64,000 nt of DNA. It comes from Methanocella sp. GTDB lineage: Archaea; Thermoproteota; Bathyarchaeia; Bathyarchaeales; Bathycorpusculaceae. The stretch's first letter is position 1. Every line of letters begins with the position of its first letter. The position numbers and the translations under genes are program-made. Under the pieces are notes generated by a model, which had not been told where the DNA came from, ran no database searches, and saw nothing but the letters and a program-made list of their open reading frames with translations. The stretch lies in NCBI GenBank assembly GCA_050261115.1, contig JBLNCY010000006.1:1-64000 (forward strand), read 5' to 3'. Of this stretch, positions 5,445-23,460 are shown piece after piece.

Positions 5445-5569
5445 GCCGGGGTGGCGGAGTGGTTATCGCGCCAGCCTCGAGATCATATCGAAAGGCGGCC
5501 AGAATAAAAATGGCGGGATAGCTGGTGGGCTTCGTGCTCGCAGGGGTTCGAATCCCTTCCCCGGCGCCA
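5445..5569 (+). tRNA. tRNA-Ser(CGA) with 38-nt intron at 37/38 (5482-5519), CCA encoded
   Basis: Acceptor GCCGGGG/CCCCGGC, discriminator G, anticodon arm CCAGC-CT-CGA-G|A-GCTGG, long variable arm, GGTTCGAATCC; bulge-helix-bulge CUCG/CGGG with AGA and AUA bulges. Confidence 0.95.
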
Positions 5570-5596: not shown

Positions 5597-6166
5597 TTAA
5601 CCATTAGTCAACTTTGTGTTTGTTAACTCCAGAATCCTGTCCCATTGTGCATCAGTGAGTCGGAAATTGGTGCCTTGGGGATTCTTAATAACTTGCATAC
5701 CTGAGAGTATGCAATCTTTATTGCACTCTTCTTGAAGAAGCGGTTTCTCTAAGTAAATTTTAAAATATTCCACATAAGCGCTGGATCTTTCTTGAAACTT
5801 GCCTGTGTCACATTTGTTAAGGAAGTATTTTTCTTGGCTGGGTGTGAGAGGGTTTTTTGCTGGATTGGTCAGTATCGTACCTAACGCATAAATCCCCGCG
5901 TTCTGCCCTGAACTCCAAATTGCAACAAAGTCACCTTTAGAAATCAATTTAACATGTTGACTTACCAGCCACTGCTCAGGTTCTTTTGCTTCTTTTATTC
6001 TCTCGAACCAATTATATATTGAAGGGTTAAATTGGAAAAGCCAATATTTCGGTTGAGGTCTGATATTAAGTAAAGTTCCGCAGCTAGAGCAAAAGCGACT
6101 AATTTTATACTGTTCAGCAGGCGTTACTTTTCCGCATTTTCTACATTCAAATTCTAGCCGAGCCAT
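5597..6166 (-). CDS. Zn-ribbon + EVE domain protein
   Basis: CRKC/CSSC then YWLFQFNP...W...KGDFVAIW..G..AGIYA..GTNFRLT..QWD, typical of EVE/PUA-like domains. Confidence 0.8.
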   Translation of the reverse strand: MARLEFECRKCGKVTPAEQYKISRFCSSCGTLLNIRPQPKYWLFQFNPSIYNWFERIKEAKEPEQWLVSQHVKLISKGDFVAIWSSGQNAGIYALGTILTNPAKNPLTPSQEKYFLNKCDTGKFQERSSAYVEYFKIYLEKPLLQEECNKDCILSGMQVIKNPQGTNFRLTDAQWDRILELTNTKLTNG

Positions 6167-6491
6167 TTGGCTAACCTCTATTACAGTTATGGCATTCTAA
6201 TTTAACGTTTTATTTTCCTTTTTATCCTGTTGCTGCGGATTGCTTAGGTAATAAAGCGTTAGATACAATCCTCCTCCACAAGAATGCGACCCAAGAATCA
6301 TGCGACCACTCATGTCATCTTATCACAGAATCCATGTCCGCTTTCTTCTATTACTTAAAATAGGGATAGCCTTGACACATATTTTTCTGAAATCAAAGGT
6401 TTGGTCTTTAGAATACAAATTTTGGTAGACTAAATCAAAGGTAGATACAGAGATAAGTATACAAAAAAAGAAGGGAAAGTCTTGTTTCCCT

Positions 6492-9143
6492 TTAGGGTTT
6501 TTTGAGCATCATAAATGCCAGCATCGCCAGCACTATGACAATCAAGACCACGATTGCTATGGTTGCAGGAACAAAGTACAGGTCTGCTGCTGAGGGTTGC
6601 TGTGTTGGTTGGGATGTTGCTGGTTCGGGTGCGGGCATTGCATAGAAGCTTGATCGCGAGGAGGAGCCGTAGTAAGAGTTGCTGCCTTCAAAGGTTGCGA
6701 TTACGGTGTATAGTCCGTCGATGTCGGGTGCCCAGGCGTAGCTGAACATGCCGCTTGAGTCTGTGGTTGTGGTACCGATTGTGCGGTAGTTGCCGTTAGC
6801 GTCGATTACATTAAGTGTGACGGTTACGCCGGTGACGTCGGTTGGTTTGGCTTTTTGCATGTAGACGTATTCCATCCATGCTGCTTGGCTCTCGTCAGAG
6901 ACTGCGGGGACACCGTTGGGGAAGCGGGCCGCCTGCTCATTTTGTTTGGTGCCTGCTGCGATGTCGGTTACTGTGCCGCGTATTACGATGGGTGTGCCCA
7001 CGGTTGTTGCGATGTCTGGTGCTGTTACGGTTAGGGCGCTTGGGCCTTTGCCTAGAGAGTAGACTTTCATGTCGTAAGCGTTGAGGTAGGTTATTTGTCC
7101 GTCTGCGATTGGGAAGCCCCAGTCGCCAAAGTTGCCGACTGCTGCCCAGCTCATTAAGGTAAAGATTTCTTCGCCGGTAGTTGCGTTGAGGGCACGTATT
7201 TTTTCGTCTCGGTATAGTGGTGTGTTGGGTGAGTGCTCGTTGCTATAGACGTAGACTTTGTCGTCGCAGATTGCTGCAATAAAGGTTGGATAGAGACCCC
7301 AGGAGGTTTCAGTTCCGCTGTTTGTGCTATTACCCGGTCCGCCGCCACCATAGGACCAAACAAGTTCGCCAGTTTTGGTGTCGTAGGCGAAGATTTCACC
7401 GCCATAGCCGCCTACGTAGAGTTTTCCGTATGCTACATAGCCGATTTGGGCGACTCCGCCGCTGCCGATGGTTGGGTAATAGTTGAATGGTTTTGCGTAA
7501 CTGACTGGCCCCCAGACTTGGTTTCCGTTGTCTAGGTTAAAGCCGTACCATTGCATGGTTTCTTTGGTGCTTACAAAGAACATGCGGTTTATTGGGTCAA
7601 CGGTGCCTAGCTGCATTGTGACGTTGCCTTCGGGTACTTGTATGTCTTTGGACCAGAGTAGCCGTCCTCTGGAGCTTTCTTCGAGGCTGACTGCCCATAC
7701 AGTTCCATAGACCGCTGTGTTACCTGCTGCTGCGCCACCCCAGGTGGGTTGCCCAAAGCTTGATCTCATATTTCCATAGCCGAGGAGCAAATCGTCGTTA
7801 ATTGCCCAGCCTATGCCTGCGCCTGATGTAGGTAAGGTTGGCAGCGTTACGTTCCACGAATAGGATTGTCGCTGTTGTGTGTTAAACACTTGGTTGACTG
7901 GTCGATATCCGTTGCTTGTTAATGCGTTTAGTGGTCCGTTGCTTACGACGTTGGTGAAGTTCCAGAGTGCTAGCCATTTGTTTGCGAGGTTGATTTGGTA
8001 TATTAGTGGTTCGCCGCTGGGTCCGAAACTCATTGTTCCGGCGGGGACATTGGTTATGTTGAAAACCCAGGTGCCGTCTATTGGGTCATACATGCTCCAT
8101 GTTGTAGCTCCGCTTATGGTTTGGGTTGCGATTAGGTATGCTATTGCGCCGTGCTGGTTGGGTGAGTCAAAATTCACGATCGCACCAAACGTGGGGTTTA
8201 CTGCGTAGTTTTGTCGCCAGATTTCTTCGCCTGTTCGAAGGTCAACACAGATGTAGCCGCCGCCTGCGCCGTTGTTGCTGTGGGGTAATCCGTAGAATAA
8301 CCGTCCGCTTATGATGATTGGACTGTTAAATTTGGTTTCGTATGAGAGGCCTGTGTAGTAAGATGTACCGGTGATTCCAGTCTGGGCTGAGGGCGAGTTT
8401 GGTTCTTGGAAGTCATTGTTTCCTCCTACGATGCCCCCTAAGGTGATTTCTTTGCTCCACATGACGTGTGCGCTATCTGGGCCTGTACCGTCAGGTTGAT
8501 AGCGTACTGATCCAAAGCTGTAGGCTGCACCCATCGGGTAGAGGTAGTTTGAGCCGATTGTGTACCAGTTTGAATTTTGGCCTTCAATTGGTCTTGTCCA
8601 GTATTCGGTGGGCAGGGGTGTGAAGGTTCCGCCAGAAACTGGTTCTTCTTGGACTGTCAGAGTTGTTGTTGCGGTGCTGGGTAGGTAGGTGTCGTTTACA
8701 AATGCAGAGTTGGGGTTGTGTTCATAGGCGGTGTATTTTTGTCCGGGGAAGGTAAAGTTGAATGTGTAGGTGCCGACTTGTGTGGGGGTGAATGTTGTGT
8801 ATGCTGATGAGGTAGTGTCGGTGACTGTTTCCCATGTGACGGTTTCGGTTTTTCCGTCTGGGGCTGTAATTACGCATTTGAAGTTATGGAAGCGGATGTT
8901 GTTGGTTACTAGAGCGCCGTCTGGGATTTTGTCAAGCCAGACTACCAAGAGGCATTGTTGACCTACGCCCGCAGGGTTTGGGGAGACATTAACGAAGGCA
9001 TAGGTAGGTATGTCCCAACCAGGGTCATGTGCGGTTGCGGCTGGTATTGAGGTTAGCGTTACAGCGATGCTCAGTAGCAGTACTGCAATGATTAGGGTTG
9101 CGCCTGTTTTTTTAGAACAAGTTTTATAGTCTAAAATTCTCAA
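6492..9143 (-). CDS. membrane-anchored PQQ-like beta-propeller surface protein (paralog 1)
   Basis: Signal-like N-terminus, repeated D..TGE..W blades, LPTEYWTRPI and RFPNGVPAVSDES motifs, C-terminal TM + KKP. Confidence 0.85.
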   Translation of the reverse strand: MRILDYKTCSKKTGATLIIAVLLLSIAVTLTSIPAATAHDPGWDIPTYAFVNVSPNPAGVGQQCLLVVWLDKIPDGALVTNNIRFHNFKCVITAPDGKTETVTWETVTDTTSSAYTTFTPTQVGTYTFNFTFPGQKYTAYEHNPNSAFVNDTYLPSTATTTLTVQEEPVSGGTFTPLPTEYWTRPIEGQNSNWYTIGSNYLYPMGAAYSFGSVRYQPDGTGPDSAHVMWSKEITLGGIVGGNNDFQEPNSPSAQTGITGTSYYTGLSYETKFNSPIIISGRLFYGLPHSNNGAGGGYICVDLRTGEEIWRQNYAVNPTFGAIVNFDSPNQHGAIAYLIATQTISGATTWSMYDPIDGTWVFNITNVPAGTMSFGPSGEPLIYQINLANKWLALWNFTNVVSNGPLNALTSNGYRPVNQVFNTQQRQSYSWNVTLPTLPTSGAGIGWAINDDLLLGYGNMRSSFGQPTWGGAAAGNTAVYGTVWAVSLEESSRGRLLWSKDIQVPEGNVTMQLGTVDPINRMFFVSTKETMQWYGFNLDNGNQVWGPVSYAKPFNYYPTIGSGGVAQIGYVAYGKLYVGGYGGEIFAYDTKTGELVWSYGGGGPGNSTNSGTETSWGLYPTFIAAICDDKVYVYSNEHSPNTPLYRDEKIRALNATTGEEIFTLMSWAAVGNFGDWGFPIADGQITYLNAYDMKVYSLGKGPSALTVTAPDIATTVGTPIVIRGTVTDIAAGTKQNEQAARFPNGVPAVSDESQAAWMEYVYMQKAKPTDVTGVTVTLNVIDANGNYRTIGTTTTDSSGMFSYAWAPDIDGLYTVIATFEGSNSYYGSSSRSSFYAMPAPEPATSQPTQQPSAADLYFVPATIAIVVLIVIVLAMLAFMMLKKP

Positions 9144-9202
9144 TTTTTTCTTTCTCCTATGTTTGTGGGTTAAAGTTCGATTGGTTCTTGTTTTAACGCA
9201 TT

Positions 9203-9226
9203 GTGTTTGTAGGGTACAACAACAGC
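9203..9226. promoter_or_regulatory. candidate regulator site upstream of propeller gene 1
   Basis: GTGTTTGTAGGGTACAACAACAGC containing TTGTA-GGG-TACAA; ends resemble the site at 22518-22543. Confidence 0.35.
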
Positions 9227-9259
9227 ACCTATCCGTTTGGGAAAAAATCAGTCAATATA

Positions 9260-10102
9260 CTAAGACGATAGAGCACTCCTTTTGATACCCTTAGAGCGAC
9301 CCCAGGTCAACTCAAAATACTCTTCAATCAACCCCACAATACAATGATTATTTACATACAAACTAGGTTTTCCGCGAGGCGAAAGCGAGGGAGTCATACT
9401 AAGAAGCGCCTTTTTCCCATCGGCAATGGATATAGTCGCCTTAGGCGGCGTGGAAACTTTTCTTATCTCAAAAAGAGGATACTTACATAGACACATAACC
9501 TGTCTGGGCAGCCGCTCGTTGTTTTTTAGAAAAACGATCACTCGGAGTTTTATTCCCTTGTCTAGAAGCTTGGTCCATATGGAGACGACATCGTCGGTTT
9601 GATCCTTAAAGTCTGACCAGTAAACCAAGACGTCCATGGCTTTCCTGTTAGAATTTACCATCTCAGCGGCTTTATGCCTAGTTAGGAACCCGTCAGGAAG
9701 CAGAACAAATTCCGAAGTATCATCGGTGATGTCGGAGTTGACTCGTTTGTAGCGTTCCAGCATTTCTTGGGTTCTTACGGTGATTTCTTTGTGCTCTTTT
9801 TCTCTTTGGTCAAGGAGCATCTTTGCGCCTTCAGCCACGGGTAGAGCTCTAAAAACGGTAGGGGTTGAGAGGATTTTCTCGACCAAATTAAGATTCATTA
9901 GGCTAGTTATTACTCGGTGTACGTTTGCGCGGTCTATGTCGGAGGTTAAAGCGAGATTTTTTAGTGTTGCTTTACCCATTCTTGCTAGGGTAAGGTATAC
10001 CTCTGCTTGTAATTCGGTTAAGCCTAGTCTCATTAGAAGCTGGGTATCTTCATTGAGATTACAGATCATTAACTCTAAGTTAACACTGGAATTATATAAC
10101 AC
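9260..10102 (-). CDS. TrmB-family transcriptional regulator
   Basis: LGLTELQAEVYLTL..G N-terminal wHTH plus C-terminal effector domain (IADGKKAL...YFELTW). Confidence 0.88.
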   Translation of the reverse strand: MLYNSSVNLELMICNLNEDTQLLMRLGLTELQAEVYLTLARMGKATLKNLALTSDIDRANVHRVITSLMNLNLVEKILSTPTVFRALPVAEGAKMLLDQREKEHKEITVRTQEMLERYKRVNSDITDDTSEFVLLPDGFLTRHKAAEMVNSNRKAMDVLVYWSDFKDQTDDVVSIWTKLLDKGIKLRVIVFLKNNERLPRQVMCLCKYPLFEIRKVSTPPKATISIADGKKALLSMTPSLSPRGKPSLYVNNHCIVGLIEEYFELTWGRSKGIKRSALSS

Positions 10103-10156
10103 TTGACAACAGCAAAGGCCTCAACCGCAAAACGCCCAAAAGCTATTGGTTCGGTT

Positions 10157-10177
10157 GCAAAAAGAAAGAAGGGAGAA
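10157..10177 (-). terminator. oligo-pyrimidine terminator-like tract after TPP enzyme gene
   Basis: Minus strand TTCTCCCTTCTTTCTTTTTGC directly after the stop. Confidence 0.45.
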
Positions 10178-11902
10178 TTACATATTCTCAAGGCGAGCAG
10201 AAAAGTTCTTGAGCCCTTGAACAAACGGCGCAAGCGGCGGCACTTCATCAGCAATGATGCAGTCAATGACCGCAGGCTTATTCTCTTCGATAACTTTGGG
10301 CAGCAACGCTTCTAGTTCACCTGGACGCTCTATAGTGTAGCCTTTTGCGCCTAAGCCCTCGGCTACTTTAGCGGCATCAATCCGCTTAAATCGAGTAGTA
10401 ACCGTTTTTTCACCTAGGTTTAGCCGCTGGAACTCATGAACCAAGCCGAGTTTAGCGTTGTTCTGCACTATCCACACAACAGGCAGGTCATAACTTACGG
10501 CGGTTTGGATTTCCATACCGTTCATGAGGAAGCAGCCATCGCCGACCACTGAAACGACTGGACGATCGGGAGCGGCAAGTTTACCACCTATTGCAGCGGC
10601 GGTCGAGTAACCCATGGTTAGCAGCCCGAATGGGCAGATAAACGAGTCGGGGGTCCGCGCTTGCATATAGTGGATAGCCCAACACATCGGGTTACCAGTA
10701 TCGACGAATAGTATTGCATCTTTGGGTAAAGCACGCTCAAGCTCTTTGAACATACGTTGGGGCAGTATGGGCACAGCGTTTGATTCCATTTTTTCTGGGC
10801 CTACGCATATACCGACTTCACGGCGGATTCTTGCAACCCGCTCAACTCCGTTGCTCTTGGGTTTGTGGTCTTCGACTACATAGCGCATGATGCGGAATGA
10901 GATTTCGTTAATGATCGTTCGAGCGTCGCCGATGAGTGCGATGTCAGTTTTGTAATTTTTACCGATGTCGGTACCGTCGATATTTATGTGGATTAGGCAT
11001 TTGGTTGGCGCGAGACGTGGATCCCAGGAGCTAGTTGTCATTTGGTTAAGGCTTGAGCCGATTACTAGTAGTACGTCGGTTTGGCCTTCTGTTAAGCACC
11101 GTTCCGCAACAGGGGAACCGCAGAATCCAAGCACACCCAACGAAAGCGGGTGATCCTCCGGGAAGGCCCCTTTTGCTTTGGGGGAAGTAGCGACTGGGAT
11201 GCAGAGGGTTTCGGCTAAGTCACGGATTTCTTCTGTTGCTTTGGATGCTACTGCGCCACTGCCAATCAAGATAACGGGGTTTTGGGCGTTAACAAGCTGC
11301 TCAGCGGCTTCGATTACTAGGCGGCGGTCAAAATATTCGCTTGGCGGACGATAGGAAGTGGAGATTGGGAGTTCTGCTTCTATCTCTTCAGCCATAATGT
11401 CCTTAGGCAAACTCAAGTGGACAGGGCCTTTTTTCCCTGTCAAAGCTGCCCGAAGAGCTACTCGAATTTCCTCGTCGACCCGGTACTTAGAGATAACCAT
11501 GGAGCTGAATTTGGTGATGGGGTCAAACATTAAGACCGAGTCAACACCGTTCTTGGTGGAATCTTGGAATGCGCCGCCACCGGATATCGAGGTTGCCACT
11601 TGACCGGTGAGGACCATTACGGGGATGTTATCGAGGTATGAGGTTGCGACGCCTGTTATGAGATTGGTTGCACCTGGGCCTGAGGTTGCAAAGCATACGC
11701 CTAGGGTGCCTTTGACGCGTGCGTAACCGTCAGCCATGAATGCTGCGCCTTCTTCGTGTTTGGCGAGGATGGGTTTAATCTTAGTTTGCCGGTTACATGC
11801 CTCAAAAAGGGGCAGTAAACTGAGCCCTGGAACGCCGAAGATGTATTCGACGCCCTCGTTTTCTAGATACTTTAGTAGTAGATCAGCGCTTGTTATTTTC
11901 AT
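10178..11902 (-). CDS. TPP-dependent enzyme, acetolactate-synthase large-subunit-like
   Basis: HEEGAAFMADGYAR, TSGPGATN, GDGCFLMN...QNN TPP motif; no ilvH/ilvC nearby. Confidence 0.9.
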   Translation of the reverse strand: MKITSADLLLKYLENEGVEYIFGVPGLSLLPLFEACNRQTKIKPILAKHEEGAAFMADGYARVKGTLGVCFATSGPGATNLITGVATSYLDNIPVMVLTGQVATSISGGGAFQDSTKNGVDSVLMFDPITKFSSMVISKYRVDEEIRVALRAALTGKKGPVHLSLPKDIMAEEIEAELPISTSYRPPSEYFDRRLVIEAAEQLVNAQNPVILIGSGAVASKATEEIRDLAETLCIPVATSPKAKGAFPEDHPLSLGVLGFCGSPVAERCLTEGQTDVLLVIGSSLNQMTTSSWDPRLAPTKCLIHINIDGTDIGKNYKTDIALIGDARTIINEISFRIMRYVVEDHKPKSNGVERVARIRREVGICVGPEKMESNAVPILPQRMFKELERALPKDAILFVDTGNPMCWAIHYMQARTPDSFICPFGLLTMGYSTAAAIGGKLAAPDRPVVSVVGDGCFLMNGMEIQTAVSYDLPVVWIVQNNAKLGLVHEFQRLNLGEKTVTTRFKRIDAAKVAEGLGAKGYTIERPGELEALLPKVIEENKPAVIDCIIADEVPPLAPFVQGLKNFSARLENM

Positions 11903-11911
11903 CGAATCAGC

Positions 11912-12253
11912 CTATGTTAACGCTTTCACTGCTTCCTCGACTGTGGGGTAGATTTGGAAGATGCGGTTTAACCCCGATATTTCAAAGACTTCCATAACAT
12001 ATGGCTTAACGTTGCAGAGCACCATCTTGCCGCCTGCACGCGACAAGCCCTTAGATGCCGTTAACAGTACACGTAGTCCTGCACTGGCAAGGTACTCCGT
12101 TTGGCTAAAGTCACATGCAATTTTTTTTGTGCCCTCAGACACCAGACGGTTTAATTCTACCTCAACTTGACTTGCGGTGTAGGCGTCAAACCTTCGTAGG
12201 ATACCAACAATTTTTGCGTCGCCAACAGTTTTAACTTCAATACTGCTCATCAC
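11912..12253 (-). CDS. STAS-domain anti-sigma-factor antagonist (RsbV/SpoIIAA-like)
   Basis: DFSQTEYLASAGLRVLL (phospho-Ser position retained), VFEISGL..IF.I. Confidence 0.92.
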   Translation of the reverse strand: MMSSIEVKTVGDAKIVGILRRFDAYTASQVEVELNRLVSEGTKKIACDFSQTEYLASAGLRVLLTASKGLSRAGGKMVLCNVKPYVMEVFEISGLNRIFQIYPTVEEAVKALT

Positions 12254-12259
12254 AAAACC

Positions 12260-12691
12260 TCATTTTAGGATTTTAGTCATCGTTAACTCGTTTTCCATAC
12301 CACGGGAGGCGTATTTAACGGTTTGCATGTAGCGTTTCATAAAGAAAATCCCCAAGCCCCCGACCTTGCGGTCCTCTAAGGCGGCATCTACGTTGGGATT
12401 CTGCACCTGTTGGGGGTCAAAGGGGATGCCGCTATCTCTTAGCTGCACAGTGAACTCTTTGGGAGCAGTTAACTTACAGCGTATAGTGATTTGTCCGCCA
12501 GATTGTCCTGTGTAGGCATGCTCAATTATGTTGGTTAAGGCTTCATCTACAGCCAATTGTACGTCAAATATGTCCTTGTCGATGGCGCCAAGCTGCCGCA
12601 TTATTTTTGCTAAGAAGGCGCTTGCTACTTCGAGATTTCTAAGGTCACTGTCCATTTTTAGCTCTGACCAACCATCGTTACTCATACACAC
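12260..12691 (-). CDS. RsbW/SpoIIAB-like serine kinase (GHKL ATPase fold)
   Basis: LAVDEALTNIIEHAY N-box, DSG..FDP, GGLGIFFM. Confidence 0.92.
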   Translation of the reverse strand: MCMSNDGWSELKMDSDLRNLEVASAFLAKIMRQLGAIDKDIFDVQLAVDEALTNIIEHAYTGQSGGQITIRCKLTAPKEFTVQLRDSGIPFDPQQVQNPNVDAALEDRKVGGLGIFFMKRYMQTVKYASRGMENELTMTKILK

Positions 12692-12700
12692 TTCGCCTCT

Positions 12701-14839
12701 CTAAGTTACCTTCAATATCATTAAGGTGATGTCGTCAAATTGCGGTTGACCGCCAGCATGTGCTGTCACGGCGTCTTGGATTCTGCGCAGAATCTCTTTG
12801 GCGGATAAGCCTCGATTTTCCTCAACAATGGCAAGGAGCCGCTGCTGACCGAATTGTTCCTCTGCAGAGTTGATGGCTTCGGTGACGCCGTCAGTGTAGA
12901 GGATGACTATGTCGCCGCTTTCCAGCTGCAACTCTGCCTCTTCTAACTTGACACCATCAATTATGCCCAAGGCGATTCCTTCCGCTTTAAGCAGCGCCGT
13001 GCCGCCTGCTGGATGCTTTAGCAGTGGCGGGTTATGACCTGCGTTAACATATCGAAGGCGCCGTTTTTTAGCATCCAATATAGCGTAGAAGAGGGTGACA
13101 AACATGCCTGATTTTGCGTCTGCACATATCAAGTCGTTGGCTTTTTCGATGGCGTCGCCAACTTTTGGGTTGCCTGTAGCGCTTGCACGTACCAATGTGC
13201 GGGACAGGGCCATGAAGAGGGCGGCGGGTACACCTTTGCCAGATACGTCAGCTATGGTTAGGCCCCATTGATCGGCGGATATGGGGATGAAGTCGTAAAA
13301 GTCTCCACCGACTTCTTTTGCGGGAATGTTTGAGGCAGCAATCTCAAAGCCAGGTATGTCGGGTTCCTTTTCGGGGAGGAAGCTTTGTTGGATACCTTTG
13401 GCGATTTCAAGTTCCTTTATTAGGCGCTCTTTTTCTGCGGTTGTGCGTTTTAGTTCTGCCATTTGATCCTGCAAGTCTGTAGTCATCTTGTTGAAGGACA
13501 CAGCTAAGGCCTCAAGCTCGTCACCGGAGTTGACTTTGACTCGGGAATTTAGGTCGCCTGCGCCGATTGCCTTTGCACCCCGCATCAGACTCATAATGGG
13601 GTTAACTATCATTCTGGATAGCAAGTAGGAGACTATGGCAACAAGAATTATGATGACTACAAACATGGTGATGAAGTAGTTTCGAATGGTTTGGGTTTGG
13701 GCATCAACGTATGCACCCGCCATGTCTACGGTACTTGCTATTTTGCCCTGCGTAACTAATGCGGGCTCTATAATGGTACTTACAGGTAAAACTATGGCTA
13801 GACTCCAGCCAGTAACCCCAAGCGGCGCATACGCAACATAGTTGTCGCTACCACTGATGGTACACATGGTTACGCCTGTTTTGCCCGCCTTCATGTCTCG
13901 GGCTATGCCGCCAAAAGTGGTATTTTCAAGAGACAGGTCGGAGCTCTCGATAAACTCGTTTGACGGCTCCTCGTCTCCGCCTACAGAATGCGTGATCATG
14001 TTGCCTTTATTGTCTAGGATGAAGGTATATCCGCCTAGTTGCTCTATCTGTGTGTTAACTACATTGCGATTTAGAGAAGCTATAGTTACATCTAAACCGA
14101 TAACCCAATAGAACCCATGTGTCGAGGAACGTATGGCAGTGGAGCAAGTTATCATTAAACCGTAGCCGCTAGCGTCAAGGTAGGGTTCTGACCAATAAAC
14201 AGAGCCTTCCCTGGCGTTCTTATACCAAGCTCGTTCTCGGGGATCAAAAGAGGAGCCGATGCCGTCGGTCCAAGGGTAAATCTGGGCAACACCCGATTTA
14301 GTCGTAACATACGCCTGCGTTATCAGGGGATCGCTGTTGTAGATTGCGGCAAAGGCGTCTTGTATGTTACTGGTGTAGTTTAATTCTGCTTCTACATCCC
14401 TAAAGTTCACGTTTGGGGCTAGGTAGTAGACTGATGTGGCTTTGGGGTTTGGGGGGGTTTGGTTTTGAGCAAACAATCCCTCTTGGGGTACAGATGAGCG
14501 CGCTAAGAGTTGAGAAGCTAAGTACCGGATGGTCATTAGTTCGGATTCTACCTGTTTAAAGACGGCGTTACTTATCTCCGCCTGGTCTACCGCTAGACTA
14601 TGCAGGTAATGCTCGGCTTGGCTCTCTAATGCGACGGTGCTGTCGTTTACTGCGCTGTCGCCTAAAGCCCGGCTGCTCTGCATTGAATAAGCATTCAACT
14701 CGTTTATACCGTTAAAGGCTATGAATCCAAGCAGTATTAGTGAAATAAGCGATATGCCTAGAAAAGCGGTCAGCACCTTCGTTTTTATGCTTAATCCACG
14801 GAGCCTCGTGTGCTTAGTCATAGCTTGCTTTCCTAGCAA
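12701..14839 (-). CDS. membrane sensor phosphatase: TM-Cache-TM-HAMP-SpoIIE/PP2C (RsbU-like)
   Basis: FDPRERAWY and WSEPYLDA Cache motifs, DELEALAVSFNKM HAMP, VGGDFYDF, ADVSGKG, NAGHNPP, YTDGVTEA, DDITL. Confidence 0.93.
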   Translation of the reverse strand: MLGKQAMTKHTRLRGLSIKTKVLTAFLGISLISLILLGFIAFNGINELNAYSMQSSRALGDSAVNDSTVALESQAEHYLHSLAVDQAEISNAVFKQVESELMTIRYLASQLLARSSVPQEGLFAQNQTPPNPKATSVYYLAPNVNFRDVEAELNYTSNIQDAFAAIYNSDPLITQAYVTTKSGVAQIYPWTDGIGSSFDPRERAWYKNAREGSVYWSEPYLDASGYGLMITCSTAIRSSTHGFYWVIGLDVTIASLNRNVVNTQIEQLGGYTFILDNKGNMITHSVGGDEEPSNEFIESSDLSLENTTFGGIARDMKAGKTGVTMCTISGSDNYVAYAPLGVTGWSLAIVLPVSTIIEPALVTQGKIASTVDMAGAYVDAQTQTIRNYFITMFVVIIILVAIVSYLLSRMIVNPIMSLMRGAKAIGAGDLNSRVKVNSGDELEALAVSFNKMTTDLQDQMAELKRTTAEKERLIKELEIAKGIQQSFLPEKEPDIPGFEIAASNIPAKEVGGDFYDFIPISADQWGLTIADVSGKGVPAALFMALSRTLVRASATGNPKVGDAIEKANDLICADAKSGMFVTLFYAILDAKKRRLRYVNAGHNPPLLKHPAGGTALLKAEGIALGIIDGVKLEEAELQLESGDIVILYTDGVTEAINSAEEQFGQQRLLAIVEENRGLSAKEILRRIQDAVTAHAGGQPQFDDITLMILKVT

Positions 14840-15131
14840 GTCAATGCTTAGCCGAGATATTTTTAGTTATGCATATAATGCATAGATCAAACTCATTTGG
14901 AACATGTTTTCTGCTGACTGCTTTTGGCTCTGCAAGCAGATGTGCAGTAAATGGGTTGGCTGAAAAGAGGAGTTTGCTGAGGCTCTGGATTTTTTTCAGG
15001 AGAAAAGAAATGCAAAAATCGCGGCCCTTCTGCTCGCAACTTTGTAATTGTTCCAGAGCCTTCTCAGCCATTGCATTTCTTTCTGCCAGTTTGGGACTAA
15101 AAAAGGGAGAGGGGGATGTTTGTGGTTTGTG

Positions 15132-17621
15132 TTATGGTCGTTTTCTGAGGGATAGGATGATGACTAAACCGACGAGGACAATTGCTATGATGATGGCGAT
15201 GACTGCCGGGATGAAGTATAGTTCAACTATGCTTGCGTCTGTAGCGGGCGTTGGTGTTGGTGTTGCTGCTGTGTCGTCTACTGCTATGGCGGTTATGGAG
15301 TGTGAGCCCCAGAACGATTTAGACCCCGCGAATGTGGCTATGATCCTGTATTCTCCTGGAACTTCGGGGACAAATGAGGCACTGTAGAATCCGTCTACAT
15401 CGCTTGTGGCTGTTCCGACAACATAGTTGTTGCCGTTGGGGTCAATGACTGATATGGTTACGGGTACACCGGTTGTGTCTGTGGGTTTTGGATACTGCAT
15501 GTAGACGTATTGCATAAAGTCAGTCATGCTCTCATCTGAGACTGCTGGGACACCGTTGGGGAAGCGCACTGCAACGTCATAATCCTCTGTGCCTGGTGCA
15601 AGATCGGTTACATAGCCCTCAACTAGGATGCGCTCGCCAAGTGTGGAGGTCTTAGGTCCTGCCTCAACTGAGATTGCACTTGGTCCTTTGCCGAAGGAAT
15701 AGATGCGGTTGTCATAGCCTGCGTTAAGTCCTGCCATTATGCTGTCGCCGATGACGCATGTTCCGCCCCACCAAACGCCAAACCAGCTGATTCGCCAGAT
15801 TTCTTCGCCGGTTGTTGCGTTAAGGCAAACCAAGGGTGCGCCTCTTGCACTTAGGTTGGGGGAGTGCTCAGCATAGGATAGGTAGATTTTGCCGTCGGTT
15901 GCGAAGTGGAACATTGTCGGGAAGTTTTCGCTCCAGAGGATTTCTGAGTAGGGGTCTGAGCAGTTGTAGTTCCAGAGCTGCTTGCCAGTTTGGATATCAT
16001 AGGCTATTGTTTGTCCGCTCATACGTTCGCTTAGGAACATGCCGTATGCGTGCATCGGGCCATACCATTTGTCGTAGAATTGCAGGTAGGATTCGGGTTC
16101 AGTTGCCCACTTGTAATTGCCGTTATCTAAGTCAAAGCCGTAGAAGCGCCGATCCTCTTTGCATGAGATGATGAATACGCGGTCCTCAAAGCTTACGTCG
16201 CTCCAGACCCAAGCGCATTCTTCGGTGCCTGTCGGTACTGTCCAAGTTTTGTTAAAGATTAGTCTTCCTGCGTCTTCGTTTTTGGTGCTGATTGCCCAGG
16301 AGGTGATGGTTGAGCCGCTATAGCTTGGGAAGGCGGAGGATTGTGAGCCGAGAATGCAGTCTTCAACTTCTGCGTGGCAGACTGAGCCGGGTAAGCCTTT
16401 AGGTATGGTTACGTTCCATTGTATGCCTCTTGAAGCATCAAATACTTGGCCGGGTACATCCCAGCTACCGTCACCTACTGACATTGCTGTTTGTGGGTTT
16501 GTGGCTCTGCTAGAGTTCCACATGGTCATCCAGCCAGCTTGCTGGTTAACTTGGTAGCGGATGATTTCGCCTCTTGGTCCGTAGTAGTTAAAGTTGGGGT
16601 TTGCTGAGGTCATGTTTTCGATGCTGTATACCCATCTTCCAGTGAGGGCGTCGTATGCTTTCCAGGTTGTGCCAGTTACTGTCCATAGGTATGCAAATGC
16701 ACCGTAGTAGTTGAAGCCTTGGAAGTTGTAGACTTGGCCGAAAGCTAGTCTTTCATTATTCCAGTTTCTAACCCAGAATTGCTCGCCAGTCTTTAGGTCA
16801 ACTGCAATAACGTTCTGCTCGACCGATTGTCCCCCTGTGGCTTGGAATTGGTTGTAGTACATGATGCCGTTGATTACAACTGTGCCATCGAATTTGCCGA
16901 CGTATGCGTCGCCCATCTCAAAACCCATTTCGCCCTGTTCGCCGCCCGTCATGCCGCCCATGGCGTATGGAGTGGTCCAGAGTATGTGGGCTGTTTCGGG
17001 TGCATCCGCGTTGCCTTCACGAAACTTTGGGATTGGTGGCATGGTGTAGCTGCCTACTGGGCGTAACCAGTTGCCGGTTAGGGGTACCCATTCGTAGAAT
17101 TGTGCGTTGATTGGTCTGTTCCAGTATTCCGTTGGTAGGGGGAATGGTGGGAAGTAGGGGATAGGTTCTTCTTGGACGACTAGGGTGTACCATTCGCTTT
17201 CGCTTGCTGCATAGGTTCTTTCTACTGCGGGGAACGTGAAGGCTGGGACCATTTTCTGTTCTGGGAAGTGTGTTTTGAATTGGTATGTGCCTACTTTGTC
17301 GGGGATGAAGATGTCGCCTGTGCCGCCCGTTGAGTCAGTGTCGTAGGGGCCTAGGGTGCGGGTTTGGTTGTCTGGGTCGATGACTGTTACGGTTAGGCCT
17401 TTCCATTTCCAGTAGGTGCCGTTGGTGGCTTCGGATATGCCGATGTGTAGCAGTGTTTCTTGGCCTACACCGACTGGGTTTGGGGTAGCGGAGATGAATG
17501 CGTAGGTTGGTTTTGGCTTCGGGGTAGCTTGTGCGTCAGCTGTCTGTATCAATGGTATTACTGAACTGACTAATGCCAGTATCAGTATCATTGATAGAAT
17601 TTTTTTACTTATGTTTTGCAT
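15132..17621 (-). CDS. membrane-anchored PQQ-like beta-propeller surface protein (paralog 2)
   Basis: Same architecture and motifs (PNPVGVGQ, LPTEYW.RPI, RFPNGVPAVSDES, C-terminal TM + RKRP). Confidence 0.85.
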   Translation of the reverse strand: MQNISKKILSMILILALVSSVIPLIQTADAQATPKPKPTYAFISATPNPVGVGQETLLHIGISEATNGTYWKWKGLTVTVIDPDNQTRTLGPYDTDSTGGTGDIFIPDKVGTYQFKTHFPEQKMVPAFTFPAVERTYAASESEWYTLVVQEEPIPYFPPFPLPTEYWNRPINAQFYEWVPLTGNWLRPVGSYTMPPIPKFREGNADAPETAHILWTTPYAMGGMTGGEQGEMGFEMGDAYVGKFDGTVVINGIMYYNQFQATGGQSVEQNVIAVDLKTGEQFWVRNWNNERLAFGQVYNFQGFNYYGAFAYLWTVTGTTWKAYDALTGRWVYSIENMTSANPNFNYYGPRGEIIRYQVNQQAGWMTMWNSSRATNPQTAMSVGDGSWDVPGQVFDASRGIQWNVTIPKGLPGSVCHAEVEDCILGSQSSAFPSYSGSTITSWAISTKNEDAGRLIFNKTWTVPTGTEECAWVWSDVSFEDRVFIISCKEDRRFYGFDLDNGNYKWATEPESYLQFYDKWYGPMHAYGMFLSERMSGQTIAYDIQTGKQLWNYNCSDPYSEILWSENFPTMFHFATDGKIYLSYAEHSPNLSARGAPLVCLNATTGEEIWRISWFGVWWGGTCVIGDSIMAGLNAGYDNRIYSFGKGPSAISVEAGPKTSTLGERILVEGYVTDLAPGTEDYDVAVRFPNGVPAVSDESMTDFMQYVYMQYPKPTDTTGVPVTISVIDPNGNNYVVGTATSDVDGFYSASFVPEVPGEYRIIATFAGSKSFWGSHSITAIAVDDTAATPTPTPATDASIVELYFIPAVIAIIIAIVLVGLVIILSLRKRP

Positions 17622-19713: not shown

Positions 19714-22422
19714 TTATGGGCGTTTCTTGGTCATCATGATGGTCAGTAAGCCGACCACGATGATGGCGACGAATAGGCCTGCGACTGCTGGGATGAAGTA
19801 TAGGTCAGCTGCGGATGGTGCCTGTGTTGGTTGTGGGGTTGGGGTTGCTGGTGCGGGGTCAACGTTGAATGCTGTGACTGCGTGTGAGGGCCAGTAGGAT
19901 TCAGAGCCCATGAATGATGCATAGACTGTGTATTTGCCTTCGATGTCGGGCATCCAGTTGAAGCTGAAGAATCCATCTGCGTCTGCGGTAGTAGTGCCGA
20001 TTGTGCGGTAGTTACCGTTAGCGTCAACTACGCTTATTTCAACTGTTACACCTGTAACGTTGGTTGGGCGTGGTTTTTGCATGTAGACGTATTCCATCCA
20101 TTCGCTTTGGCTTTCGTCAGAGACTGCTGGAACGCCGTTGGGGAAGCGTGCTGTCTGCTCGGGTTGCGTGGTGCCTGCTGAAACGTCGGTTACTGTGCCT
20201 TTTATCATGACACTCTTGCCTGCTTCGACTACGTCGTTTGTGATTGATACTGTGGTGCTGCTTGGTCCTTTGCCGATTGCGTAGACTTGGTGGTCGTAGT
20301 TGTTCCAGTAGGTTAATACGCCGTCTGCTACTGCGATGGTTCCGGGGTGAGCCCAGCCAAGCATGCTCCAGACGTATTCGCCTGTTTCAACGTCGAATGC
20401 ACGGACTTTTGCGCCTTTTAGGAGCGGGGTGTCTGCGCTGTGTTCGTGGGTGCCGATGTAGATTTTGCCGTCTGCTGTTACACCGTGGAATAGTGTGTAG
20501 TACTTGAAGATTTCACCGCCTGTAGGTGCTTCCTGTTTCCAGATGAGGGTGCCGTTGTAGAGGTCATATGCGTATACTGCGCCAGTGTAGCCTGTGGTGA
20601 AGAGTTTACCGTTTGAGATTGTTGAGCCATAGACGTTCATCAAGCTGACCCAGCTGTAGTAGCCGAATGGGTTGAAGTCAGCTTGTGGTTCACTTTCCCA
20701 GAGCATGTTTCCTGTGTAGATGTCAAATACTTGCCATGTTAGGCTTGGCATTTCTTGCATTACGAATACGCCGTCTGCTGCGCGGATGAATAGTCTCTGT
20801 GAACCGTCTGCGAATGTCATGTCAAAGTTCTTTTGCCAGAGGACTCTGCCTTCTTCGCCTGATTTGAGGCTGATGGCTGTTAGAGTGGCTTCTTCTGCGT
20901 TGTGGTAGTATAGTGAGCTTGTGCCTGCTGTTGGTAGGGTGCCGTTGCTGACTAGCATTACGTCGCCATATTGGGCCATTCTGATGGTTGGGTTAGATGC
21001 AAATCTGCTGCCGAGTGAAACGTTAAAGTCCCAAGTTGTTATTTCTGGCGCGGTGTATGTAGATGCAGGTCTTAGTAGGCTTGCTAAGCTGCCGTTTCTG
21101 GTTCCAGAGTTTTCATATCTGAATACTCTTGATGAGTTCCATTGGTAGAGGTGGTAGTCAGGATTCTGTGTTGTACCGTCATTTTGTATAACATAGCGCA
21201 GGATTTCGCCTTTTGGACCGACATTGTCGAAGCCTGAGGGAACATCGGTGACGTTAAGGTTGATGGTTGTGCCGTACCGTGGGTGTATGAATGCCCAGTT
21301 GTTGATAGTTCTTGAACCTGACCTAGAGGTGTATTGTGAAACTATGTAGCCGGGGTTTACAACACCGTGTTGGTTCATGTCGTCTAAGTCGTAGTAGTAG
21401 CCGAATTGTGGCTGGTAAGTCATGGTTTGGTTGCGCCAGATTTCTTCACCGGTCTTTAAGTCAACGCATACCCAGTCACCGCCGGTGCCTGCCCAAGCGA
21501 TTGGTTCACGGTAGAGGAGGCGTCCGTGCATGATGATCTGTGTGCCTGCATATCTGGTCTGGTATTGGTGGCCTGCGTTGAAGACTTCTCCGTCTGTTGA
21601 GAAGAATTGGTCGCCTCCGACAACACCACCGTCCTCGGTTATTTTAGTCCAGAGGATGTGTCCGCTGTTTGGTGCGGTACCGTCTCGTTGGACACGGTTG
21701 TCAGTGTATCCGCTGTTTCTGTCTGCTGCATTGCCATACCAGTTTGAGGAGATTTTTCCCCATTCTGTGTTTTGTCCCTCAATTGGGCGGGTCCAGTACT
21801 CTGTTGGTAGTGGGTAGTGAGTAACTGCACCGGGGGATACTGGTTCTTCTTGTACCTCTACTGTGTAGGTTTTGTTGCTGGATAGGAAAGTTACGCCATA
21901 GTAGTCGCGGCCAGCGCCAGAGCCACTCCATTTCCAGTATAGTTCCTCAAAAACTAGTGTAACTGAATAGTTACCGACTGTGTCGGGAGTGTAGGATGTG
22001 TAGGTTGTTCCTGTTGAGTCAGAGACAAGTGATCCGCTGGAGGGTAGTCGTACTTTTGATCCGTCGGGTTTTGTGATGTCAACGTGGTATTTGTATCGGA
22101 TGTCATTGCCTTCAGAAGCTTGATAGGGGACCTGTGGGTTGAATATGACCATGGTGAATTTCTGGCCGACACCTACGGGGTTCGGGGAGATAACACCATA
22201 GACCCATGTTGGGACTTTGTCTTCATAGCGTTCCCACATTAGGAGCCTAATAGCGGAAGCGTTGATGTCGGGAAGGTCCCAGTTCATACCATCGTCAATA
22301 GCGTCCTGTGTTGTTTTGTTGTAACCTGCGGAGACAGAAGGTATCATTGAAACTGCCATGCTTGATACCAGTAATATCGCAAAGATTGCTGCGATAAACT
22401 GTTTTGTTTTTTGTATTTTCAT
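19714..22422 (-). CDS. membrane-anchored PQQ-like beta-propeller surface protein (paralog 3)
   Basis: Same motif set as paralogs 1 and 2; C-terminal TM + KKRP. Confidence 0.85.
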   Translation of the reverse strand: MKIQKTKQFIAAIFAILLVSSMAVSMIPSVSAGYNKTTQDAIDDGMNWDLPDINASAIRLLMWERYEDKVPTWVYGVISPNPVGVGQKFTMVIFNPQVPYQASEGNDIRYKYHVDITKPDGSKVRLPSSGSLVSDSTGTTYTSYTPDTVGNYSVTLVFEELYWKWSGSGAGRDYYGVTFLSSNKTYTVEVQEEPVSPGAVTHYPLPTEYWTRPIEGQNTEWGKISSNWYGNAADRNSGYTDNRVQRDGTAPNSGHILWTKITEDGGVVGGDQFFSTDGEVFNAGHQYQTRYAGTQIIMHGRLLYREPIAWAGTGGDWVCVDLKTGEEIWRNQTMTYQPQFGYYYDLDDMNQHGVVNPGYIVSQYTSRSGSRTINNWAFIHPRYGTTINLNVTDVPSGFDNVGPKGEILRYVIQNDGTTQNPDYHLYQWNSSRVFRYENSGTRNGSLASLLRPASTYTAPEITTWDFNVSLGSRFASNPTIRMAQYGDVMLVSNGTLPTAGTSSLYYHNAEEATLTAISLKSGEEGRVLWQKNFDMTFADGSQRLFIRAADGVFVMQEMPSLTWQVFDIYTGNMLWESEPQADFNPFGYYSWVSLMNVYGSTISNGKLFTTGYTGAVYAYDLYNGTLIWKQEAPTGGEIFKYYTLFHGVTADGKIYIGTHEHSADTPLLKGAKVRAFDVETGEYVWSMLGWAHPGTIAVADGVLTYWNNYDHQVYAIGKGPSSTTVSITNDVVEAGKSVMIKGTVTDVSAGTTQPEQTARFPNGVPAVSDESQSEWMEYVYMQKPRPTNVTGVTVEISVVDANGNYRTIGTTTADADGFFSFNWMPDIEGKYTVYASFMGSESYWPSHAVTAFNVDPAPATPTPQPTQAPSAADLYFIPAVAGLFVAIIVVGLLTIMMTKKRP

Positions 22423-22638: not shown

Positions 22639-23460
22639 ATGCGGGACCAAGAGATGAACATAAAAACGCTAGTAGACTTTGGACTCAATAGGACCCAAGC
22701 CAAAATATACCTCGCATTAGCAGAAAAGGGAACTCTAACCATACGAGCTGCCGCCGATTACTCAGAGGTAGGCCGACCAGACACTTACCGCGCAATGCTT
22801 GAACTCAAAAAAGCAGGTCTCATAGAAGTAGTGCTGGATAACCCAACAAAATATAGAGCAGTCCCACTGTCAGAAGCCATCTCGATTCTAATGGGACAAA
22901 AAAGAAAAGAAATCCTAAACCTGAAAGAAAAATCTGCAAAACTACTCCAGCAATTCGAAAACAAGAATAGCACTGACATGCCTGTTGTCGAAGGCGAATT
23001 CATCATTTTACCTAAAGGCGCAGCATGCATAAAAAAGAGGGTAGAGGCAATAAGAAGCGCTGAATACAGCATCGACTGCTTGACTTCATTCAAACGATTC
23101 AATCAAACGCTCCTAGTTGCAGGCGATGACATAATAGAGGCAGCCAACAAAGGAGTAAAAATAAGATTCATTCTAGAAAAAGAAAGCATCAACAAACCAT
23201 TATCAAAAGAACTAACATTATTCTGCAAGAACTCCTCATGCGAAGTAAAGTTTATTTCTGAACCACCTCAATCGTTTGTAGCAATCTTTGACAAAAAAGA
23301 AGTACATCTAGCGACGTCTGAAGCAGGAGACTTTTCCCAGGTGCCGATTCTATGGTCAAACAACACTGCCCTTCTTCGGATTTGCCAACACTATTTTGAA
23401 GGTTACTGGGCAGAGAAACCTAGTCCACAAAACCTCTTGGAAGAATTCAAGTTAGCATAG
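22639..23460 (+). CDS. TrmB-family transcriptional regulator
   Basis: FGLNRTQAKIYLAL..G wHTH, AIFDKKEV, YFEGYW. Confidence 0.88.
   Translation: MRDQEMNIKTLVDFGLNRTQAKIYLALAEKGTLTIRAAADYSEVGRPDTYRAMLELKKAGLIEVVLDNPTKYRAVPLSEAISILMGQKRKEILNLKEKSAKLLQQFENKNSTDMPVVEGEFIILPKGAACIKKRVEAIRSAEYSIDCLTSFKRFNQTLLVAGDDIIEAANKGVKIRFILEKESINKPLSKELTLFCKNSSCEVKFISEPPQSFVAIFDKKEVHLATSEAGDFSQVPILWSNNTALLRICQHYFEGYWAEKPSPQNLLEEFKLA

Follow-up and report, generated by a model that had tools for sequence, protein, structure and literature searches.

In a 64,000-nt stretch of an archaeal contig (JBLNCY010000006.1, assembly GCA_050261115.1; hereafter the window), four adjoining genes encode a sensor phosphatase, an RsbW-like kinase, a STAS protein and an enzyme dependent on thiamine diphosphate (ThDP). 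On balance, the comparative data point to these genes being one signalling-plus-effector cassette whose output is the ThDP enzyme itself, a reading held with modest confidence. The favoured topology, inferred from gene arrangement, is one in which the STAS protein would be a phospho-switchable binding partner of the enzyme. Direct STAS-enzyme binding is favoured for two reasons: the STAS gene, not the kinase gene, is the one tightly coupled to the enzyme gene; and the pair persists where no kinase lies nearby. To the extent of the searches made, a ThDP enzyme as the output of a partner switch is apparently undescribed within the literature searched. If the reading is true, this is a partner-switching module with a carbon-metabolism enzyme, rather than transcription, as its direct output.

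The four open reading frames (ORFs) all lie on the minus strand and, in the ORF listing, are separated from stop to next start by 9, 6 and 9 nt. They are: the sensor phosphatase (12701..14839; 712 aa; Pfam dCache_1, HAMP and SpoIIE/PP2C); the RsbW/SpoIIAB-like serine kinase of the GHKL family (12260..12691; 143 aa; HATPase_c_2); the single-domain STAS protein (11912..12253; 113 aa; STAS), with a predicted phospho-acceptor at Ser57; and the ThDP-dependent enzyme (10178..11902; 574 aa; TPP_enzyme_N, _M and _C), which resembles acetohydroxyacid synthase (AHAS) and is the proposed regulated output. The ORF list and the Pfam scan thus agree with an earlier note on this DNA, which had described the same gene order and spacing and proposed a complete partner-switching cascade coupled to the enzyme. 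That core claim holds, and the note's interpretation as a whole is partly supported. As read from the sequence, in-frame ATGs at 14821 (phosphatase), 12685 (kinase) and 12250 (STAS) appear the likelier starts; with these, the first gap becomes 15 nt and the second 9 nt.

Linkage of STAS and enzyme genes across related loci

A search of genome contigs for related loci matched 602 stretches and confirmed 585 of them; retaining the best 80 gave 77 loci, a sample rather than a census. Here, clade loci are the 26 whose enzyme is at least 56% identical to that of the window, and the other 51 have enzymes 35-53% identical. From 24 STAS sequences a profile was made and used to search the ORFs in all six frames, in the window as well as in the 77 loci; kinase and PP2C profiles were run likewise. 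The naive ORF caller had overlooked the STAS gene in the high-GC loci L005, L011, L014, L024 and L032, where it was recovered by tblastn and the profile search.

By the profile search, a STAS gene is present in all but two of the 26 clade loci (24/26) and in none of the other 51. The two clade loci lacking a match are L002 and L020; the L020 contig has only 31 nt of sequence upstream of the enzyme gene. Of the 26, 21 have the STAS gene directly upstream of the enzyme gene and co-oriented with it, an arrangement found in 0/51 loci outside the clade. The gap between the two genes was measured in 20 loci and ranges from -4 to 26 nt; in the window it is 9 nt. The signalling partners are found less often: a kinase in 14 and a PP2C in 10 of the 26 clade loci, with one weak kinase match (L052, 27 bits) and no PP2C in the 51 others. 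Outside Bathyarchaeota, the usual order is STAS-enzyme-PP2C-kinase (L009, L010, L018, L020, L027 and L029); L009, L010 and L018 are archaeal loci with the full operon in this order. No metabolic or other neighbour beyond STAS, kinase and PP2C is conserved across the clade loci. The STAS-enzyme linkage is not confined to one genome.

The enzyme tree contains 72 rows, namely the window and 71 loci whose ORF is 500 aa or longer, and was built under LG+G4 with a quick search. Loci without a complete ORF (L008, L016, L031, L062) or with one below 500 aa (L038, L041) were left off; L032 stayed in, its internal stop being coded as a gap. The STAS-linked enzymes, together with those of L020 and L002, form a single clade of 24 rows with a support of 100 in the Shimodaira-Hasegawa-like approximate likelihood-ratio test (SH-aLRT). 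The STAS-linked label requires 3 changes on this tree, against a mean of 19.0 when labels are shuffled, and none of 500 shuffles is as low. The linkage of STAS and enzyme thus probably arose once, as judged from the tree.

The clade is broad, spanning about ten bacterial phyla and four archaeal lineages. Its bacteria include Chloroflexota, Verrucomicrobiota, Acidobacteriota, Armatimonadota and Bacillota; its archaea are Bathyarchaeota, Methanobacteriota, ANME-1 and Methanomicrobiales. Archaeal rows stand at three separate places beside bacterial rows: Bathyarchaeota near Aerophobota and Clostridia; Methanoregula near Acidobacteriota; and Methanobacteriota with ANME-1 near Chloroflexota and Sumerlaeota. 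This scatter indicates repeated transfer between the domains. Pairwise distances of the STAS proteins and of the enzymes are correlated (Mantel r = 0.86, 16 loci; 0/2000 permutations as high), consistent with transfer of the two genes as a pair, and shared ancestry alone could yield much of this correlation.

The same breadth bears on the framing of the module as one belonging to a sigma-less archaeon. The window is archaeal and carries a complete set, as the earlier note had it, but the framing is too narrow, as the same pair occurs in about ten bacterial phyla that do use sigma factors. It follows that the non-sigma output belongs to the cassette and is not an archaeal adaptation.

These patterns also bear on an alternative in which adjacency carries no functional coupling: the STAS and enzyme genes would be a selfish or neutral pair, inherited together, while the signalling proteins act on targets elsewhere. 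A probable single origin lends this some weight, for the frequency of the linkage then partly reflects inheritance. The pair has nevertheless been kept while enzyme identity drops to 56-70% and STAS identity to 30-47%, and through several transfers between bacteria and archaea in which all other neighbours were replaced; the two genes are also close enough (-4 to 26 nt) to suggest co-translation. Taken with this evidence, uncoupled adjacency appears quite unlikely.

Several clade loci differ from the common arrangement in their own ways. In L012, the PP2C gene is a remnant that retains only the last 27 residues (5984-6192), and the kinase, STAS and enzyme genes are intact. About 1.5 kb past its enzyme gene on the downstream side, L001 has another kinase-STAS pair along with a convergent PAS-PAS-PAS-PP2C gene (10303-13118), which suggests two sensory inputs onto one enzyme. 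The enzyme gene of L032 (7001-8728) has one in-frame stop codon and could be a pseudogene, a sequencing error or a case of recoding. In L029, an oxidase linked to flavin adenine dinucleotide (FAD) lies within the operon, between PP2C and kinase (8577-10004; FAD_binding_4 and FAD-oxidase_C, a pair we take to be typical of D-lactate and glycolate dehydrogenases), and in L004 an Fe-alcohol dehydrogenase gene follows the enzyme gene. The last two are possible hints at 2-oxo-acid or aldehyde metabolism.

The signalling proteins and the proposed switch

The PP2C/kinase/STAS set is complete, with catalytic and phospho-acceptor motifs intact at the sequence level. The phosphatase is ordered as follows: an N-terminal transmembrane helix; an extracytoplasmic dCache_1 domain (71.1 bits); a second transmembrane helix; a HAMP domain (50.6 bits); a coiled linker; and a PPM/PP2C domain of SpoIIE type (186.4 bits), whose match covers residues 522-711 and profile positions 2-191 of 192. 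Its metal-binding Asp motifs (EVGGDF.D, DV.GK, TDGV.E and DD.T) are invariant in 12 of 12 aligned domains. The kinase matches HATPase_c_2 at 103.8 bits and keeps the N, G1 and G2 boxes: across 15 kinases, E50, N54, D86, R108, G111, G112 and G114 are invariant and G88 nearly so (at least 90%). The nearest NCBIfam model is RsbW (67.9 against a cutoff of 145), the SpoIIAB cutoff is likewise missed, and the best match in the PDB is RsbW (6m36_A), RsbW and SpoIIAB being the best relatives there.

The STAS protein scores 72.6 bits against Pfam STAS and passes TIGR00377, the model for anti-sigma factor antagonists (75 against a cutoff of 53.45). In an alignment to SpoIIAA (1th8_B), its Ser57 (codon 12085-12083) matches the first Ser of 'DSSGL', which we take to be the phospho-site of that protein. 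The phospho-Ser position, already marked as intact in the earlier note, is Ser in all 24 of the STAS proteins linked to the enzyme.

The sensor part of the phosphatase, by comparison, is swapped among relatives. It is dCache_1 with HAMP in the window, L001 and L007; 5TM-5TMR_LYT in L009, L010, L018, L020, L027 and L029; 5TMR_LYT with GAF in L006; HAMP alone in L024; and three cytoplasmic PAS domains in the second module of L001.

If the STAS protein is the binding partner of the enzyme, the switch would likely involve: phosphorylation of Ser57 by the RsbW-like kinase, which would turn the STAS-enzyme interaction off; removal of the phosphate from STAS by the membrane PP2C once a ligand occupies the extracytoplasmic dCache domain; and binding of the free dephospho-STAS to the enzyme, which would thereby be activated. 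The sign of regulation, the ligand and the substrates of the enzyme are guesses. The preferred physiological guess is that a 2-oxo-acid signal, such as pyruvate overflow, would control a pyruvate-consuming carboligase or decarboxylase. In BtsS, the 5TMR-LYT module binds pyruvate, according to passages in PMC10653868 and PMC5431176. The 2-oxo-acid signal is attractive because 5TMR-LYT, the commonest sensor among the relatives, is the module that binds pyruvate there. The most far-reaching version of the proposal, in which STAS would be the phosphorylation-switched regulatory subunit of a widespread AHAS-like ThDP clade, taking the position of the ACT-domain IlvH in true AHAS, the cassette (which includes both PP2C and kinase in 10 of the 26 clade loci) would have moved repeatedly between bacteria and archaea, and the sensor would report external 2-oxo-acid or pyruvate, is advanced tentatively.

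One STAS chain and one enzyme chain were modelled together in a complex prediction that used custom alignments, so that the calibration counts given here hold only roughly. The three runs score 0.57, 0.59 and 0.49 (median 0.57), against 0.00 for the best of three controls, and the verdict is 'weak support'. The runs agree in at least 97% of contacts, and the partner has a predicted local distance difference test (pLDDT) value of 86. In calibration, 58 of 80 solved complexes and 2 of 110 mismatched pairs passed the mark; scores of 0.60 or below were given by both of these mismatches but by only 7 of the 80 solved complexes. Combined with the genomic prior, the model offers mild corroboration only of STAS-enzyme binding.

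Several points weigh against direct control of the enzyme by STAS. Adjacency inherited from one ancestor is one gain kept and not many independent gains. Ten of the 26 clade loci have a STAS gene but neither kinase nor PP2C in the stretch examined, 3 of these 10 stretches being contigs of 2-6 kb, and around the L002 enzyme gene none of the three signalling genes is found within 7 kb. Three further loci have the STAS gene near the enzyme gene without adjoining it: in L003 it lies 3.3 kb downstream, and in L006 and L007 it belongs to a STAS-kinase-PP2C operon just downstream of the enzyme gene on the opposite strand. A prediction score of 0.57 falls in a band more often wrong than right unless the guess is already likely, and the model is 1:1 for an enzyme that is normally a dimer or tetramer, with no interface reported. 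Fusions of STAS to the enzyme among longer proteins number 0 of 384 candidates at E <= 0.001, which is weak evidence. The pyruvate idea is a guess drawn from domain analogy only, and the window's own sensor is dCache and not 5TMR-LYT. Finally, canonical partner switching predicts that the kinase, not STAS, holds the target.

This last expectation corresponds to a topology in which the kinase would bind and inhibit the ThDP enzyme, and dephospho-STAS would release the enzyme by capturing the kinase, never touching the enzyme itself. RsbW and SpoIIAB systems are established to work through a kinase-held target, and the PDB relatives of the window kinase are of just this type. A kinase also lies near the enzyme gene in 14 of 26 clade loci, against one weak match in 51 others, but the pairing of STAS with the enzyme is tighter in position and spacing (21 of 26 directly upstream), and it is present in 10 loci without a kinase in the stretch examined. 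With the STAS-enzyme prediction passing, if weakly, over its best control, capture of the enzyme by the kinase appears unlikely.

Partner-switching modules are textbook regulators of sigma factors, and a few cases act on other targets. The RsbU-RsbV-RsbW and SpoIIE-SpoIIAA-SpoIIAB systems of Firmicutes share with the window a PPM/SpoIIE-type phosphatase, a STAS protein with the Ser, and a small GHKL kinase. They differ in that their kinase-held protein is a sigma factor, whereas here the host is archaeal and no sigma-factor domain is found among the 59 window ORFs scanned against Pfam. In addition, the conserved extra gene here encodes a ThDP enzyme and is adjoined by STAS rather than by the kinase, and the window kinase is under the equivalog cutoffs of both RsbW and SpoIIAB.

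A closer precedent for a PP2C/kinase/small-protein module that acts directly on an enzyme is SiaABCD of Pseudomonas aeruginosa, with the PP2C SiaA, the kinase SiaB, the phospho-protein SiaC and the diguanylate cyclase SiaD, as described in passages of PMC8457831 and PMC7647112. The proposed logic is alike, according to the same passages (PMC8457831, PMC7647112): a sensor PP2C and a kinase set the phospho-state of a small protein, and this protein binds and activates an enzyme of the same operon. Unlike that system, the output gene of the window encodes a ThDP carboligase-like protein and not a GGDEF cyclase. The small protein of the window is a classical STAS (TIGR00377). Although SiaA (NF038263) is the best NCBIfam match of the window phosphatase, the latter is not a SiaA orthologue, scoring 90.5 where the cutoff is 700.

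Rsb-like genes in archaea are not new in themselves, because a passage in PMC9237108 places rsbRSTX stressosome modules in 'even some archaeal species'. The passages on 'archaea' in PMC7522486 deal with RNA polymerase only, and a term search of the accessible text of a review of STAS-only proteins (PMC8256260) found no mention of archaea, enzyme, metabolism, diguanylate or SiaC. Searches with a coverage that leaves out most subscription journals returned no description of a STAS protein or partner switch tied to acetolactate synthase or ThDP proteins, and none of archaeal partner switching with an enzyme output; one of them matched a Mycobacterium smegmatis sigF study on all three of its terms. 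If true, the proposal would account for Rsb-like proteins in sigma-less methanogens, ANME-1 and Bathyarchaeota, and it comes down to a directly testable interaction between two proteins.

Identity of the ThDP enzyme and its relatives

The enzyme is a ThDP-dependent member of the superfamily of pyruvate oxidase (POX) and AHAS-like proteins and, by sequence, not a housekeeping IlvB. TPP_enzyme_N, _M and _C each match at 133-140 bits; Glu50 is present in HEEGAAFMADGYAR, and the cofactor motif GDG...NN spans 454-482. Across 52 enzyme sequences, E50, G454, D455, G456 and N482 are invariant and N481 is nearly invariant (at least 90%). The enzyme is under every AHAS equivalog cutoff in NCBIfam, for example 454 against 538.35 for TIGR00118 and 455 against 866 for NF004919.

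The tree agrees with this assignment. The 24-row clade is nested in a superclade of 58 rows, which is parted from the IlvH-linked enzymes by a branch of 0.83 (SH-aLRT 100), so the enzyme stands apart from housekeeping AHAS. The IlvH-linked rows number 10: in 9 loci Pfam saw IlvH, and L055 received the label only because it is nearly identical to L056. Among these rows is L042 from Bathyarchaeia, a lineage that therefore has a separate housekeeping AHAS. Within the window, neither AHAS small-subunit domains (ALS_ss_C, ACT_AHAS_ss) nor IlvC are found among the 59 ORFs, consistent with the earlier observation that no ilvH or ilvC is adjacent. The sole KARI_N match in the window is a zero-stretch side match within S-adenosylhomocysteine hydrolase.

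Like AHAS (IlvB/IlvI with IlvH/IlvN), the window enzyme has the three-domain ThDP fold, the catalytic Glu and GDG...NN, and a small regulatory protein encoded alongside. It differs in its sub-cutoff scores and separate clade, in having a STAS rather than an ACT-domain neighbour, and at the position of the Trp in yeast AHAS 'QWQ', which is Phe491 here. By analogy, the STAS protein would be functionally comparable to the IlvH of true AHAS and mechanistically comparable to SiaC acting on SiaD.

Among solved structures, BbmA (8x3x, 8x3y, 8xod) is by far the nearest, matched at 493.8 bits over residues 3-556; next come CsmA (290.5 bits), E. coli AHAS I (281.6) and the yeast and plant AHAS (about 230-250). 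Phe491 aligns with G484 of BbmA, and the clade consensus at this position is Leu. BbmA probably falls outside the STAS-linked clade, as its 493.8 bits compare with 809 bits still held by the 120th listed match of the protein search. That search returned thousands of relatives, and the 120 listed are 61-90% identical to the enzyme. They come from Bathyarchaeota, Chloroflexota, Verrucomicrobiota, Acidobacteriota, Methanobacteriaceae, ANME-1 and others, with Bathyarchaeota the closest among the matches listed, and they are annotated generically as 'thiamine pyrophosphate-binding protein' or, by transfer, as 'acetolactate synthase'. If the proposal is true, it supplies a regulatory logic for a large conserved enzyme family (at least 120 clusters at 61% identity or more), and it would also keep these genes from being assigned to branched-chain amino-acid biosynthesis when the metabolism of uncultured archaea is reconstructed.

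A sister clade of the enzyme, among L017-L075, is 43-50% identical, consists mostly of Elusimicrobiota and is also tied to signalling genes. A response regulator, often REC with HTH_17, is directly upstream in 12 loci, and a PQQ propeller is upstream in 3; downstream, 6 loci have an O-methyltransferase, 3 have SBP_bac_5 and 4 have a GAF/PAS histidine kinase (examples are L046:4446-5081; L054:6369-6962 and 8719-9819; and L048:5752-6966 and 8826-10505). The whole superclade may be under dedicated signal control, to judge from these gene neighbourhoods.

The earlier note had offered three outputs: direct control of the enzyme by kinase or STAS, which the comparative data favour, with STAS the tighter partner; an acyloin sensed by the Cache domain; and the downstream TrmB and propeller genes. 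The second amounts to an autoinducer-like loop, in which an acyloin made and exported by the enzyme would be sensed by the Cache domain of the phosphatase and the real output would lie elsewhere. AHAS-like enzymes can make acyloins, and the response regulators, histidine kinases and O-methyltransferases that flank the sister clade fit small-molecule signalling. As a general logic, however, the loop is disfavoured by the swapping of the PP2C sensor domain among relatives (dCache with HAMP, 5TMR-LYT, 5TMR-LYT with GAF, HAMP, PAS). It also leaves unexplained why STAS, and not the sensor, adjoins the enzyme gene, and no conserved exporter is found nearby. Such a loop is very unlikely.

Genomic setting in the window

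The window carries clear archaeal markers in the Pfam scan: thermosome, aIF2-gamma, S6e, S24e, Rpo7, Cdc6, the PolD small subunit and Fae-Hps. The four operon genes have a G+C content (GC) of 0.46-0.51, a GC at third codon positions (GC3) of 0.47-0.52 and a codon-usage correlation with the rest of the window of r 0.66-0.87; the means of the other 42 window genes are 0.478, 0.508 and 0.71. A recent bacterial transfer of the operon was considered and rejected, since composition and codon usage lie within the spread of those 42 genes. Recent import is also contradicted by the retention of the operon in the Bathyarchaeota-like loci L001 (all four genes) and L012 (with the PP2C remnant).

Directly past the TAA stop of the enzyme gene, the minus strand reads a T-rich tract, TTCTCCCTTCTTTCTTTTTGC (10150..10177). 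This is the terminator-like tract noticed earlier, and it could be an archaeal oligo-T terminator. At the other end of the operon, a promoter-like A+T-rich element (14860..14890, minus strand) lies about 50-60 nt 5' of the phosphatase ATG at 14821. Here, a near-palindrome, ATGCATTATATGCAT (14869-14883, minus-strand reading), overlaps a TATA-like element and could be a promoter or operator. A 172-aa ORF on the plus strand (14869-15387) has a low-complexity translation, overlaps the 3' end of an opposite-strand propeller gene and is probably not a gene.

Just downstream of the enzyme gene are a TrmB-like gene (9260-10102, minus strand) and, beyond it, a PQQ-propeller gene (6492-9143, minus strand). 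The TrmB-like gene probably forms a transcription unit separate from the module, because it has its own TATA-like box, TTATATAA, about 25-30 nt before a plausible ATG. These neighbours raise the third of the outputs offered earlier, namely that the module acts on transcription through the TrmB-like regulator and propeller, with the ThDP enzyme as a passenger. Both genes are present in L001 too, although there they lie upstream of PP2C and not downstream of the enzyme, and L012 has no TrmB match. TrmB or propellers accompany the module only in these Bathyarchaeota loci, at differing positions; the other 23 clade loci lack them. The window itself contains three propellers and a second TrmB-propeller pair 8 kb away, which points to a local gene family, and the TATA-like box sets the TrmB-like gene apart from the operon. 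A transcriptional output through these genes is accordingly very unlikely.

The propeller paralogues lie at 6492-9143, 15132-17621 and 19714-22422, all on the minus strand, and encode surface proteins that are 830-900 aa long. All three share a signal-like N-terminus, a PQQ_2 beta-propeller and an Ig-like region, and have a transmembrane anchor at the C-terminus. Two of the three adjoin TrmB-like regulators, the second TrmB-like copy (22639-23460, plus strand) being next to a propeller gene, and similar genes flank the module in L001 and L012. Elsewhere in the window, a tRNA match on the plus strand (5445-5566) spans 122 nt, which exceeds the standard length of a tRNA. Intron-containing tRNAs are common in archaea, and this one probably contains an intron.

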